Shown: one piece after another, positions 59,989-64,000 of the stretch | Numbering within the stretch: position 1 is the stretch's first letter | Layout: each line of letters opens with the position of its first letter | Source: Alphaproteobacteria bacterium | GTDB taxonomy: Bacteria; Pseudomonadota; Alphaproteobacteria; UBA828 | Direction of reading: 5' to 3' | DNA length: 64,000 bases | Assembly (NCBI GenBank): GCA_965214705.1 | Contig: CBDCCI010000002.1 | Coordinates: 1,344,001 to 1,408,000, forward strand | Translations under genes and position numbers: made by a program | The notes under the pieces: generated by a model | What the model saw: the letters and a program-made list of their open reading frames with translations, nothing else | Databases searched by the model: none | Told to the model about the DNA's origin: nothing

Positions 59989-62538
59989 ATGCGTGAAGCC
60001 TGGGGCAAATTCGACGGTGAGAAGACTCATCCACTCGCACATCACTGCATAGATGTCGCCGCGGTCTTTGCGCGGATGATCGAACTGCCGGTCGTTCGAG
60101 ACCGGTTGGATAAGGCGGTCGGAGTGCCGCTGGACGACGTGCAACGACACCGGCTGTCGGCGTTGGTGTTCCTGCACGACATCGGGAAGCTGCATCCGGG
60201 ATTTCAGGCCAAGGGCTGGCCAAACGGGGCATGGTCCGGTCCGGTGCGTGGCCACCTGAAGGAAAGCTGGGCGTTCTTGACGCTCGCCCTCAAGTGGCCG
60301 GAGCATCCATTCAATGGGACGATGCACCGGATAATGACATGGGGCGAGGCGGTCGGCCCTCTCCTCGCCGCAGCGGTCGCGCACCACGGCCGACCCGTGT
60401 CGCCGCCGGCCGGCCCGACGCTCATGGACTGGGATGGGCGATCGTTGCTTCACTACGATTGGCGAGCGGAGGCACGGACGATAGCCGACGCGTTTACCCA
60501 GTGGTTTGCCGGAGCCTTCGATACGGCCGCGGAGCCGTTACCGGATACTCCCCGGTTCCACCATGCGGTCGCCGGACTCGCCGCCCTTGCCGACTGGATC
60601 GGATCGGACCAGCGGTTTTTCGAGTTCCAGGCGCCATTCGATCCATGCTACGACGTCACCGCACATCGTCAGGCGGCACAGGCGCTAAGTACGGTTGGCT
60701 TGGATGTTCGCACGCTTGCCGACGGGTCTGCGCCCGAATTCACGAAGATGACGGGTTTCGCGGCGCCGAGGCCCGCGCAGGACGTAGCGGGTGCGGTGGG
60801 GGCCGAGGCCCGACTGGTCATCCTCGAAGCCGAGACCGGATCGGGCAAGACCGAAGCTGCGCTGTGGCGGTTCGCTCAACTCTTTGCGGCAGGCAAGGTT
60901 TCCGGTCTCTATTTCGCTGTGCCCACGCGCGCGGCGGCGCGCCAGTTACACCGGCGCGTCGTCGAGACGATGCAGCGCACTTTCGGCGAGGACGCGCCGG
61001 AGCCAGTACTGGCCATCCCCGGCATGTTGCGGGCGGGTGAGTTCGACGGCCATCGCCTACCCGGATGGGAGGTGCGATGGGACGACGACAGGGATACGGC
61101 TCCCCGACGTTGGGCGGCCGAACACGCGACCCGATTTCTTGCCGCGACGATTGCCGTGGGCACGGTGGACCAAGCGATGCTCGCGGGCCTTCGAGTCAAG
61201 CACGCGCATCTGCGGGGCAGTGCGCTCAGTCGTAGCATACTGGTGATCGACGAGGTTCATGCTTCCGATGCCTACATGACAGAAGTCCTGAAGCGGCTTC
61301 TTGATGGACATCTCGCGGCCGGCGGATATGCGATGCTGATGTCCGCCACACTCGGCGCGCGAGCACGAGTCCGCTGGACTGGTGAAGCCTTGCCAGACTT
61401 CACGACCGCTCACGCGTTGCCCTATCCAGCGGTCTGGGTGAAGGGGGAACTCGAACCACGTGCCGTCGGCGAAGCGGAGCGCCCAAAGACGGCGCACTTG
61501 GAGACCGTGCCTACGATGGACGCGGTGACGGCGGCGGCGCGGGCTATCTCAGCGGCAGAGCACGGCGCTCGGGTCCTGGTAATCCGCAATACGGTGGCCG
61601 CGGCGGTGGCGACGTGGCGTGCGGTTCTGGAGGCCGAAGCGGAATCCCTGCTCATGCAGGTCGAAGGACATTCTGCGTTGCATCATGGACGGTTCGCCGC
61701 AGAGGACCGCCTCCTCCTGGATCGAGCCGTGGAGGCGGCACTGAAACCGGAACAAGACCGGGAATGCAAAGGCTGCATCGTCATTGGCACGCAGACACTG
61801 GAACAATCCCTCGATATTGACGCCGATTTTCTCGTTACCGACTTGTGTCCGATGGATGTGCTGCTGCAACGGATCGGTCGGCTTCACCGGCATGACATTC
61901 GCCGGCGACCGTCAGACTTCGATAATGCCCGCGTCGCATTGCTGTTACCTGAGGATGGGCTGGACCCACTCGCGAAACCAGCGTTCAAGAACGGACTTGG
62001 CGCGTGGGAGACGCCGGAGGGTATTAACGGGATCTATCGCGATCTCGCGGGGCTCGAGCTGACTTCGCGAGCAATCGCAAAGAATCGGAAATGGCGGATA
62101 CCGCAGATGAACCGTGCGCTGGTCGAGGGTGCTACCCATCCCGAGCACATCGACGCGCTGATCGAAGAGAAGGGCCAGGGCTGGAAGCGTTACGAGAGAA
62201 AGGTCGGCGGTGCGGCCTTGGCCGAAGGCATGATCGCCGAGCTCAACTCCCTGGACCGTGAGGAGCGGTTCGAAGACGCGATCTTTCCCGATTCGGACGA
62301 ACGGATCATTACACGGCTCGGAGAGGAGGGAATCGTGCTGAGGCTCGATCCGCCGCCTGTCGGCCCGTTCGGTCGTTGCATAAGTCGTATTGCCCTGCTG
62401 GCACGCTGGTCCCGCGGCATCGGTATTGACGAACCCGTGGAGATATGCGCCGAAGCGGAGAGTCTTGTCCTGTCGCTCGGGGGTAGGCGGTTCCGCTATT
62501 CGCGAGAGGGGTTGGCAGTCGAAACGGGACGGCCTTGA
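59989..62538 (+). CDS. cas3: Cas3 HD nuclease-helicase (type I-E)
   Basis: HCIDVAA, LHDIGK, LADWIGS, ETGSGKTEAA, DEVH, SAT, QRIGRLHRH; start at MREAWGK inferred. Confidence 0.95.
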   Translation: MREAWGKFDGEKTHPLAHHCIDVAAVFARMIELPVVRDRLDKAVGVPLDDVQRHRLSALVFLHDIGKLHPGFQAKGWPNGAWSGPVRGHLKESWAFLTLALKWPEHPFNGTMHRIMTWGEAVGPLLAAAVAHHGRPVSPPAGPTLMDWDGRSLLHYDWRAEARTIADAFTQWFAGAFDTAAEPLPDTPRFHHAVAGLAALADWIGSDQRFFEFQAPFDPCYDVTAHRQAAQALSTVGLDVRTLADGSAPEFTKMTGFAAPRPAQDVAGAVGAEARLVILEAETGSGKTEAALWRFAQLFAAGKVSGLYFAVPTRAAARQLHRRVVETMQRTFGEDAPEPVLAIPGMLRAGEFDGHRLPGWEVRWDDDRDTAPRRWAAEHATRFLAATIAVGTVDQAMLAGLRVKHAHLRGSALSRSILVIDEVHASDAYMTEVLKRLLDGHLAAGGYAMLMSATLGARARVRWTGEALPDFTTAHALPYPAVWVKGELEPRAVGEAERPKTAHLETVPTMDAVTAAARAISAAEHGARVLVIRNTVAAAVATWRAVLEAEAESLLMQVEGHSALHHGRFAAEDRLLLDRAVEAALKPEQDRECKGCIVIGTQTLEQSLDIDADFLVTDLCPMDVLLQRIGRLHRHDIRRRPSDFDNARVALLLPEDGLDPLAKPAFKNGLGAWETPEGINGIYRDLAGLELTSRAIAKNRKWRIPQMNRALVEGATHPEHIDALIEEKGQGWKRYERKVGGAALAEGMIAELNSLDREERFEDAIFPDSDERIITRLGEEGIVLRLDPPPVGPFGRCISRIALLARWSRGIGIDEPVEICAEAESLVLSLGGRRFRYSREGLAVETGRP

Positions 62539-62563
62539 CAAGAGGCGAGCGAGTTCCTAGTGT
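62535..62563 (+). promoter_or_regulatory. sigma70-type promoter of the cascade operon
   Basis: TTGACA (62535-62540), 17 nt, TAGTGT (62558-62563). Confidence 0.75.
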
Positions 62564-62614
62564 TTCCAAAACAGTGTAACTGGCAGAAGATCATCTTCCC
62601 TAGGAGATCCCACG

Positions 62615-62830
62615 ATGCGCTTCAGCATAGGTCTTGGTTTAGGGGTCGATTGGCGACGCGACAGCCATGTCAACCACCGCTGGACGGCACTTGTGATGCT
62701 GGCGCTTAGCGCCATATGTTATCCCCGAAGCTGGATTCGGGATAGACCTAGTGTGACTGGTACGCCCGTGTCGCACCGGATGGATTCCCCGTTGACTGCG
62801 GGGGTGAGAAGGGACCGGATCGGCGAATGA
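62615..62830 (+). CDS. Putative 71-aa leader ORF spanning the mini-array
   Basis: AGGAG at 62602-62606, 8 nt before ATG; stop overlaps cas8e start (ATGA). Confidence 0.35.
   Translation: MRFSIGLGLGVDWRRDSHVNHRWTALVMLALSAICYPRSWIRDRPSVTGTPVSHRMDSPLTAGVRRDRIGE
62718..62811 (+). CRISPR. Degenerate one-spacer type I-E mini-array (crRNA-like regulatory RNA)
   Basis: GTTATCCCCGAAGCTGGATTCGGGATAGACCT, 32-nt spacer (62750-62781), GGATTCCCCGTTGACTGCGGGGGTGAGAAG; both repeats fold into I-E-like stems. Confidence 0.75.
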
Positions 62831-64000
62831 ATCTCATTTCCGATCCGATCCTGACCCTTGCCGGTCGTACCAGGGCTTCGCTCCCCGGTCTGCTCGCGGC
62901 GATGGCGTGCCGCGAGGTGCGGGGATTTCCGGCGCTGCGTCCACACCAGCGGCCAGCTTGGCACATGTTTCTTGTTCAGCTCGCTGCCCTAGCGCTCTGG
63001 ACGGCTGGCCGCGACGATCAGCCCCTCGACGTCGAATCCTGGGCCGAGACCCTACGTGGGCTGACGGCGGACCATCCGGACGACTCGCCCTGGCGATTAG
63101 CGGTTGCGGATCGGAGCAAGCCCGCCTTCATGCAGGCCCCGGCACCGGACGGATTGAAGTGGTCCGAGGTCCCCACGCCCGACGCACTCGACATGCTCAT
63201 CACCGCGCGCAATCACGACTTGAAGCAGGCGGTCGCGCGGCAGGCGACGGCCGAAGATTGGGTCTACGCCCTGGTGTCGCTGCAGACCTGCGAAGGATAC
63301 GGCGGTAGAGGGAACAACGGGATTGCGCGCATGAACGGCGGTTCGTCCAGCCGCCCGTTGCTGGGCCTCGCGCCGACCCGCGGAGAGGACATGTCCATCA
63401 ATCCCTCAGCTTGGTGGGCGCGGGACGTGAAGCTGTTGTTGGCTGCACGGGAGAAGGGCGCGCATGGCCAACTCGGCACGCAGGGCGGACCGGCACTGCT
63501 TTGGTGCCTCGACTGGCCGGAGGGCCGACAGCTCGACATTCGCACACTCGATCCCTGGTTCATCGAGACTTGCCGCCGCGTGCGCTTGACAGAGTCGGGC
63601 GGGCGGCTATCGGCGCACCGCGCTACTTCTAATGGAACGCGCATCGACGCAAAAGCGCTCAGGGGCAATACCGGCGATCCCTGGACGCCGGTCGACAACA
63701 GTGGCAAGAGCCTGACCCTCAGCGAGAGTGGCGACTTCCACTATCGCCGCCTCTACGACTTGCTGTTCTCCGGCAATTGGAACAGGCCGCTTCTCGCTTG
63801 TCCAGGGGACGACGAGACCGTTGACATGCTCGTCGTGGCGGAGGCGTTCGCGCGCGGCAACAGCAAGACCGGGGGCTTCAAGTCGCGCGTGGTGCCGGTG
63901 CCGGGAAGAGTCTTGCCGCTATTCTCGTCCGGCGATATCGGCAGACTTGCCTCGGAGCAGCTAAAGGAGATCGAGAGCTTCGACAAGGCGCTGGCATATG
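62827..64000 (+). CDS. casA: Cas8e/Cse1 (CasA), truncated by window end
   Basis: MNLISDP, FPALRPHQRPAWHMFLVQL, PAFMQ, NHDLKQ, GIARMNGG, GNSKTGGF; follows cas3. Confidence 0.9.
   Translation, partial: MNLISDPILTLAGRTRASLPGLLAAMACREVRGFPALRPHQRPAWHMFLVQLAALALWTAGRDDQPLDVESWAETLRGLTADHPDDSPWRLAVADRSKPAFMQAPAPDGLKWSEVPTPDALDMLITARNHDLKQAVARQATAEDWVYALVSLQTCEGYGGRGNNGIARMNGGSSSRPLLGLAPTRGEDMSINPSAWWARDVKLLLAAREKGAHGQLGTQGGPALLWCLDWPEGRQLDIRTLDPWFIETCRRVRLTESGGRLSAHRATSNGTRIDAKALRGNTGDPWTPVDNSGKSLTLSESGDFHYRRLYDLLFSGNWNRPLLACPGDDETVDMLVVAEAFARGNSKTGGFKSRVVPVPGRVLPLFSSGDIGRLASEQLKEIESFDKALAY

Follow-up and report, generated by a model that had tools for sequence, protein, structure and literature searches.

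A CreR-type CRISPR RNA-like unit likely represses its own cascade operon in an alphaproteobacterial type I-E locus

[quoted passage not shown] The locus lies in a stretch of 64,000 nucleotides (nt) from an Alphaproteobacteria bacterium (contig CBDCCI010000002.1, positions 1,344,001 to 1,408,000), here called the window. The spacer contains a mini-CRISPR, in which two degenerate repeats, PsiR1 and PsiR2, flank a spacer-like segment, PsiS. We consider it likely, on comparative grounds, that this unit is a CreR-type CRISPR RNA (crRNA)-like regulator of type I-E, repressing its own cascade operon. Established at the level of sequence are the anatomy of the unit, its likeness to the true repeat, the covariation of its hairpins, the covariation of guide and target in about 20 loci, and the conserved placement of the target after a promoter-like motif.

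The original prediction, made from the window only, described two degenerate I-E repeats around a 32-nt spacer, with an 8-nt handle after the first hairpin. All of these elements are present, the spacer being exactly 32 nt long. The native repeat of this genome, GGCTCCCCCGCCCGCGCGGGGATAGCCCC, has a length of 29 nt and a 61-nt period, with 32-nt spacers. Since it is located outside the window, the proposed comparison with it is an independent test, and both PsiR1 and PsiR2 turned out to be in register with it. PsiR1 retains GGGATAG.CC. of the native repeat, with GGGATAGACCT vs the native GGGATAGCCCC at its 3' end, and its handle is identical at six of eight positions (ATAGACCT vs ATAGCCCC). PsiR2 begins exactly 32 nt after PsiR1, with GGATTCCCCG vs the native GGCTCCCCCG, each followed by a hairpin. 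The first unit keeps the 5'-handle part of a repeat and the second keeps the 3'-handle hairpin part, as in CreR. Compared position by position over 29 nt, each is less than about 60% identical to the native repeat. The mature RNA is predicted to cover about 62742-62803. The minimum-energy fold of the 271-nt leader contains both hairpins, and the thermodynamic stability of the whole leader was uninformative (z = -0.33 and -1.14).

As for chance resemblance, we scanned both strands of the 7.9-Mb genome for both repeat motifs, allowing up to two mismatches in either motif at a 31-33 nt spacing. Eight non-array sites were found genome-wide, including this locus, which corresponds to about 1e-4 expected per 288-nt region. 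A canonical CRISPR array was considered and rejected, as there are two repeat units only, and the same single unit in all unit-bearing relatives. A terminator-like GC-rich hairpin with a T-rich tail is present at 62700-62714, immediately 5' of PsiR1, and is not kept in the relative L084.

The target site, AAC-AGTGTAACTGGCA (62570-62585), lies 9 nt past a TTGACA-17-TAGTGT motif whose -35 hexamer overlaps the cas3 stop codon, and the protospacer is expected at about +1 to +16 of the transcript. The predicted protospacer-adjacent motif (PAM) and target were both found in place. The predicted pairing also holds, in the sequence and in the own-spacer scan described below: positions 1-5, 7-11 and 13 match, positions 6 and 12 mismatch, and pairing ends thereafter. 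The site has AAC and matches the guide at 11 of the first 13 positions, a partial complementarity at the effector promoter. The seed AGTGT.ACTGG has four copies in the genome, of which the one at the promoter alone has an AAY PAM.

A search with the Cas8e N-terminus gave 80 related loci, 52-90% identical and mostly from metagenome-assembled genomes, or 81 including the window; three of the 81 (L004, L057 and L056) have too little upstream sequence. With a rule-based scan and three manual additions or corrections, we found the mini-CRISPR in 27 of the 81 I-E loci, two of which (L029 and L030) are identical copies in one genome. When the 450 nt upstream of cas8e were searched without bias for 5+1+5 self-matches, the same arrangement came up in a dozen loci. 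The handle ATAGNCCN usually begins 85 nt upstream of the cas8e start. Unit-bearing loci span at least six phyla, with Cas8e 52-67% identical to that of the window, and the flanking leader is not alignable. The co-varying relatives, about 20, belong to Pseudomonadota, Acidobacteriota, Latescibacterota, Binatota, Deinococcota and Spirochaetota. DNA similarity in 60 relatives was limited to the 3' end of cas3, in two genomes.

The native repeats of five checked relatives follow the pattern G[GT]TT[CT]CCCCGC....GCGGGGATAGACC. Because these true repeats end in ATAGACC, the handle retained in the units is the native one. Both the handle ATAGNCC and the two stems are retained across 22 loci. In a gapless alignment of the 22 units, 89.7% of the alignment cells in the hairpin stems are paired, vs 19-64% with the partner slid. 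Compensatory changes, on both sides of a pair, were seen in 12 of these cells, and none of 500 shuffles equalled the observed covariation score.

The original prediction also held that spacer and target should covary in homologous loci. We scanned guide positions 1-5 and 7-11 of each of the 27 loci against its own upstream region. The score was 10/10 in 12 loci, 9/10 in 8, 8/10 in 3, 7/10 in 3 and 6/10 in 1. The sites scoring at least 9/10, in 20 of the 27 loci, lie just downstream of a promoter-like TTGAC..TAnnnT, and the runner-up site never exceeds 8/10. When guides were scanned across loci as a control, only 36 of 702 pairs reached at least 9/10, nearly all between related seeds. The loci scoring at least 8, with L030 dropped, form a set of 22 that holds 18 different seeds, so guide and target co-vary.

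Positions that took no part in site selection are informative in this set: matches were counted in 18 of the 22 loci at position 13, in 15 at position 14, in 12 at position 15, in 10 at position 16 and in 8 at position 17. Low counts are seen at positions 6 (2), 12 (6) and 18 (4), with 3-9 matches past position 18. Judged from these counts, the unselected positions carry the 5+1 pattern of Cascade. Together with the own-seed sites and the cross-locus control, this makes the claim of the original prediction, that Cascade represses its own operon through a crRNA-like RNA, the best reading of the comparative data. Guide position 6 is mismatched in 20 of the 22 loci, so that it matches less often than the 25% that chance would give; this could reflect selection for the mismatch or shared ancestry.

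In terms of PAMs, the homologous sites of the 22 loci have AAC (14), AAT (6) or TAC (2), and never AAG. In E. coli, the PAM is the source of the last base of the repeat. Native arrays of five relatives have C after ATAGACC in 79 of 104 repeats, followed by T (17), G (7) and A (1), and the 29th repeat base in the own genome is C in 37 of 40, T in 2 and G in 1. The order of C and then T mirrors the target PAMs. Given this 29th base and the E. coli rule, this clade probably has AAC as its cognate PAM, with the PAM here read from the repeat base and not from protospacers. The original prediction called AAC a usable I-E PAM; this claim can be sharpened to a probably cognate one. The variation of the 29th base (C, then T, then G, in L086-L090 and in the own arrays) reads like a record of acquisition PAMs.

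None of the 35 native spacers matches elsewhere in its own genome at up to five mismatches. Searching array 1 against phages gave one weak 36-nt match (E 0.4), and against plasmids only other CRISPR arrays, via the repeat. We also looked for viral mimics of the guide, and rejected them. The handle-plus-seed pattern occurs in three stretches of viral contigs, none with hairpins, and was judged to be chance; the best stretch (L096) is inside a 710-amino-acid open reading frame (ORF), on the other strand.

The windows that run up to the protospacer contain a promoter-like pair with a mean best score of 8.5/12, vs 6.0 when shuffled, and 11 of the 22 score at least 9. In the relatives this pair is often TTGAC[ACG] across the cas3 stop, and the end of the -10 is separated from the protospacer by 0-27 nt or reaches up to 3 nt into it. 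A separate promoter inside the leader, driving the guide, was rejected: windows ending at PsiR1 have a mean of 5.2/12, below the shuffles, and none of the 22 reaches 9. The internal candidate in the window is TTGTGA-18-TATGTT, at 8/12. As no consistent internal promoter is found upstream of PsiR1, the guide is likely cut from the leader of the repressed operon, and the guide RNA most likely derives from the very promoter that it represses.

The steps from transcription start through processing and Cascade loading to repression are those that we infer from these observations. Transcription would run from the promoter overlapping the end of cas3, starting near 62570, with a 257-nt leader into cas8e-cse2-cas7-cas5-cas6e. 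Cas6e would cleave at the base of both degenerate hairpins, releasing an RNA of about 62 nt with the handle AUAGACCU, the 32-nt PsiS and the 3' hairpin. Cascade loaded with this RNA would recognise AAC and pair with the template strand at 62573-62585, at guide positions 1-5, 7-11 and 13. Because the pairing, as we propose, is too short for R-loop locking and Cas3 recruitment, Cascade would then sit on the transcription start region and repress its own operon. Genuine crRNAs or anti-CRISPR proteins that divert Cascade would relieve the repression, and such sensing of crRNA supply or anti-CRISPR proteins is suggested by analogy with the described CreR.

Table 1. Features of the cas3-cas8e region, in window coordinates.
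Feature	Coordinates	Strand	Basis or detail
cas3, 914 amino acids	59794..62538	+	ORF list; NCBIfam Cas3 helicase and HD domains above cut-offs
Putative cascade promoter	62535..62563	+	TTGACA 62535-62540, 17 nt, TAGTGT 62558-62563
PAM AAC, non-target strand	62570..62572	+	Sequence
Protospacer seed AGTGTAACTGGCA	62573..62585	+	Matches PsiS positions 1-5, 7-11, 13
Shine-Dalgarno AGGAG	62602..62606	+	8 nt 5' of the small-ORF ATG
Small ORF, 71 amino acids	62615..62830	+	ATG; reads through the mini-CRISPR; TGA overlaps the cas8e ATG (ATGA)
PsiR1	62721..62749	+	Hairpin 62724-62729 with 62736-62741 (CCCGAA/TTCGGG), then 8-nt 5' handle ATAGACCT 62742-62749
PsiS, 32-nt spacer-like segment AGTGTGACTGGTA...	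62750..62781	+	Sequence
PsiR2, GGATTCCCCG...	62782..62810	+	Hairpin 62787-62791 with 62799-62803 (CCCCG/CGGGG), 3' handle
cas8e (cse1)	62827..64000, on to 64371 past the window	+	casA_cse1 end to end, E 1.2e-13, below the curated cut-off

A conserved small ORF, which the original prediction does not mention, overlaps the mini-CRISPR. It starts about 42 nt past the target, and the handle is translated as R-D-R-P. In the relative L084 (72% amino-acid identity), TAGGAGAT and the ATG are conserved while the surrounding 5' untranslated region has diverged; there is no insertion or deletion over the 213 nt of the ORF, and the short untranslated region has one. The frame of the small ORF is the longest open frame across the unit in 25 of the 27 loci, and L026, where it ties, also has it. 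Over the 99 nt 5' of PsiR1, which cannot be aligned between families, the ORF frame contains 2 stops vs 46 and 23 in the other frames, with none at all in 25 of the 27 loci. Relatives have an ATG near -212 and an ORF of 62-84 amino acids (mode 71), and 19 of the 24 chosen starts have a Shine-Dalgarno core of at least 4 nt, 3-12 nt upstream. Loci without the unit mostly have 0-130 nt open in this frame, and the exceptions look like abutting cas3. A full-length ORF is missing in two to three of the 27 unit loci (L015, L032 and L045).

In terms of database homologues, gene callers had predicted three close ones, each of exactly 71 amino acids. A profile of the ORF found 41 clusters at E up to 1e-3, all unnamed. 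Most aligned nearly end to end, and 37 of them have 62-82 amino acids, the remaining ones 96, 97 and 170. The 170-residue entry (P0045), with four matches to the profile, is evidently a translated CRISPR array. No credible Pfam family was found among the 27 ORF peptides.

The N-termini of the ORF are diverse, with 17-35% identity vs 56-65% for Cas8e, that is one-third to one-half as conserved. They show a strict hydrophobic alternation (score 3.41 vs 1.36 +/- 0.13 in 1000 shuffles). AlphaFold2 gives a beta-hairpin with strands at residues 2-15 and 21-34 (predicted local distance difference test, pLDDT, 72-79 over residues 1-30), and a disordered guide-encoded C-terminal half. The N-terminal part, about 35 residues, is thus predicted to be an amphipathic beta-hairpin. 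The ratio of nonsynonymous to synonymous substitution rates in this part was 0.2-1.0 in 11 pairs, 2.3 in one and saturated in 4, a small and noisy set, and differences between the window and L084 fall 9/5/9 on the three codon positions; from these two measures, amino-acid constraint is not clearly proven. For the PsiR2-loop serine the codon is TCG, TCT or TCC, depending on the locus.

From its sequence features, the small ORF is very probably translated. That an ORF with Shine-Dalgarno and ATG, reading through PsiR1-PsiS-PsiR2 and ending on the cas8e start, is a real added layer seems to us a good bet, held with slightly less confidence than the autorepressor reading itself. It may act as a coupling leader, as a Cascade-linked peptide or as a toxin. 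Since the ORF spans the mini-CRISPR, translation and processing by Cas6e would be mutually exclusive for each transcript. Tentatively, and with more doubt than confidence, we suggest a dual-coding leader, in which one RNA serves both as a Cas6e-processed guide and as the 3' half of a translated gene, about 71 codons long, whose stop overlaps the cas8e start. Ribosomes and Cas6e would compete for it, resulting in a double feedback: a transcriptional loop, with the guide on the promoter, and a post-transcriptional loop, with the translated leader severed from cas8e. The peptide might also, or instead, be a new Cascade-linked factor or a toxin.

Several points weigh against an autorepressor at this locus. 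The promoter of the original prediction stands in part: the sequence is present and its motif is conserved in relatives, and a promoter scan of 62300-63000 returned no promoter at all, because TAGTGT has only three of the six bases of TATAAT. A promoter at this place is plausible from its sequence. Homologous loci pair over 11-21 nt, and the pairing in the window, 11 of the first 13 positions, is the shortest in the family. Cas6e would have to accept hairpins with A-U pairs and loops of 6-7 nt. Match counts at the seed positions are biased upward, as seeds were used for picking the sites, and counts from related loci are not independent. Seven of the 27 unit loci have no site of at least 9/10, with only 6-7/10 in L013, L014, L061 and L081. 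The nearest Cas8e relatives, L004 and L005 (89-90%) and L011 (71%), are without the unit, which shows that it is dispensable. Sequencing runs listed for the organism are four, from one study, all of DNA, with no RNA run among them.

In L004, L005 and L011 the cas3-cas8e spacer is shorter (about 170 nt) and unrelated, with neither the mini-CRISPR nor the small ORF. A quick Cas8e tree (79 rows, L041 and L056 left out) has loci with and without the unit interleaved, and its well-supported branches force at least nine changes. Read from these sequences, the cassette is an old one that moves between phyla together with the operon and has been lost repeatedly. L061 has a 17-nt duplication inside the spacer-like segment (L061:3840-3927), with part of the handle and the seed (AGACCC+TGCTTGTTTGT) present twice; it may be a slipped or a two-unit version, and no good target was found within 450 nt.

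The absence from the closest relatives, the degenerate repeats and the seven other genome sites returned by the sequence-only scan would all suit a unit that has no function today and is either what is left of an old, decaying array or similar to one by chance. We hold this to be the least probable of the alternatives, since position, hairpins, handle and the match of guide to target are conserved over at least six phyla, where Cas8e is only 52-67% identical and the leader is unalignable. Only slightly less improbable is that the locus is a small protein gene and nothing else, with the repeat likeness as a by-product of coding, or that the ORF is a translational-coupling leader for cas8e whose RNA is never processed. 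The open frame, with its few stops, the conserved Shine-Dalgarno and ATG, the 41 clusters of mostly similar length and the varying codon of the PsiR2-loop serine are what a protein gene would give. Against it, both hairpins are maintained by compensatory changes, the likeness of PsiR1 and PsiR2 to each genome's native repeats lies exactly in the crRNA-handle parts, and the spacer is exactly 32 nt. Coding also offers no explanation for the covariation between the 13 nt that follow the handle and a site outside the ORF, 155-233 nt upstream.

An addiction or anti-anti-CRISPR module of the CreTA or CrePA kind, with the ORF as a toxic peptide, the mini-CRISPR as its antitoxin and loss or inhibition of Cascade unleashing the toxin, is improbable too, if somewhat less so than the two explanations above. 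A conserved ORF that looks translated sits exactly where a Cascade-repressed toxin would be, its product is small and basic with the predicted amphipathic beta-hairpin and its marked alternation, and CreA-controlled protein toxins have been described for type I-F. The cascade genes, however, share the promoter, so that physiological derepression, which is the point of the CreR logic, would also make the toxin. The peptides match no Pfam family, and the loci without a full-length ORF keep the unit.

The autorepressor reading places the unit in a class that is already described. From the sequence, it has these CreR-class features: a repeat-like pair around a spacer of native length, a position inside the cas locus beside the effector genes, the two retained handle parts, the PAM-flanked partial match at the effector promoter, and guide and target that stay matched in relatives. 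On whether the RNA stands alone, the point that separates CreR from CreA, the space from the target to cas8e holds a conserved ORF of 62-84 amino acids, which overlaps the RNA and may or may not be a toxin. New relative to the class are the guide in the leader downstream of its target, AAC as the apparently cognate PAM, and the overlapping conserved ORF.

The comparisons that follow apply to the text of each report that was available. Autorepression of Cascade mediated by CreR was shown in the type I-E system of Salmonella enterica (bioRxiv 10.1101/2023.03.10.532045). Shared with it are a degenerate mini-CRISPR beside the effector genes, with the 8-nt 5' handle kept in the first repeat and the 3' handle in the second, and a proposed autorepression that responds to crRNA load and anti-CRISPR proteins. 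The Salmonella CreR has 15 consecutive matches and an AAG PAM, whereas here there are 11 in the first 13, broken at 6 and 12, with AAC. Unlike in Salmonella, the RNA here lies downstream of its target, within the leader of the repressed operon. It also has a conserved overlapping ORF, which the available text does not mention for CreR, and its function is deduced from sequence.

Mini-arrays between cas3 and cas8 were reported in about 19% of bacterial I-E loci (Shmakov et al., bioRxiv 10.1101/2023.03.03.530964). These also have two repeat-like units in a long cas3-cas8 spacer, a PAM-flanked seed match at the cas8 promoter and a mismatch at every sixth position. In the cases examined there, the mini-array is antisense to cas3, with the target downstream and an AAG PAM; here the unit is co-directional with cas3 and cas8e, with the target upstream and an AAY PAM. 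In those mini-arrays the upstream repeat hardly differs from the array repeat, whereas both repeats are strongly diverged here, yet conserved between loci.

In CreTA (type I-B) and CrePA (Acinetobacter baylyi, type I-F), as proposed here, a small gene sits between cas3 or cas6 and cas8, and a crRNA-like RNA guides the effector to its promoter. The toxins of these systems are separate genes, an RNA toxin or a 103-amino-acid KilAC protein. Unlike these, the small ORF described here encloses the guide RNA, directly adjoins cas8e and would share a transcript with it, and has no family match. Long-form trans-activating CRISPR RNA is another natural guide that, through short complementarity, makes the cas9 effector repress its own promoter; it differs in being class 2, with another RNA architecture and no Cas6 processing. 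In the literature searched, which covers the available main texts and not the supplements that may list loci of this family, no description was found of a protein-coding frame over a crRNA-like regulator.

Autoregulation of the CreR type explains how Cas levels are kept low and still responsive to crRNA demand and anti-CRISPR proteins. The compensatory changes are natural evidence for the type I-E mechanism outside the enterobacterial example, with the 5+1 mismatch signature visible in evolution. The design is compact, in that the guide would be made from the transcript that it shuts off, and the overlap of ORF and guide would link translation, Cas6e processing and transcriptional feedback. 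Units of this kind are invisible to array finders. They could be annotated by a rule that looks for the handle ATAGNCC about 85 nt before cas8e, together with a seed match after the promoter.

As for the locus itself, the cas3-cas8e spacer covers 62539-62826 (288 nt). Beyond the window, the contig continues with cse2, cas7, cas5e, cas6e, cas1e and cas2e, and then two arrays. NCBIfam models score above cut-off for Cas3, Cas7e, Cas5e, Cas6e, Cas1e and Cas2e; by gene content, this is a complete type I-E set with its arrays downstream. Cse1 scores 50.8 vs the 70-bit cut-off in NCBIfam (L085:3827-5368), and the cse2-sized ORF (L085:5046-5936) has zero NCBIfam matches, so that this clade of I-E is a divergent one. 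Between the two arrays downstream of cas2 there is an ORF of 463 amino acids (70467-71858 in window coordinates, outside the window; L085:11467-12855), with no NCBIfam match at E 1e-5. Distant from the cas operon and outside the window, on the minus strand of contig C3 at about 2,065,155-2,066,110, this genome has a third CRISPR array, whose repeat is the same as in these two.

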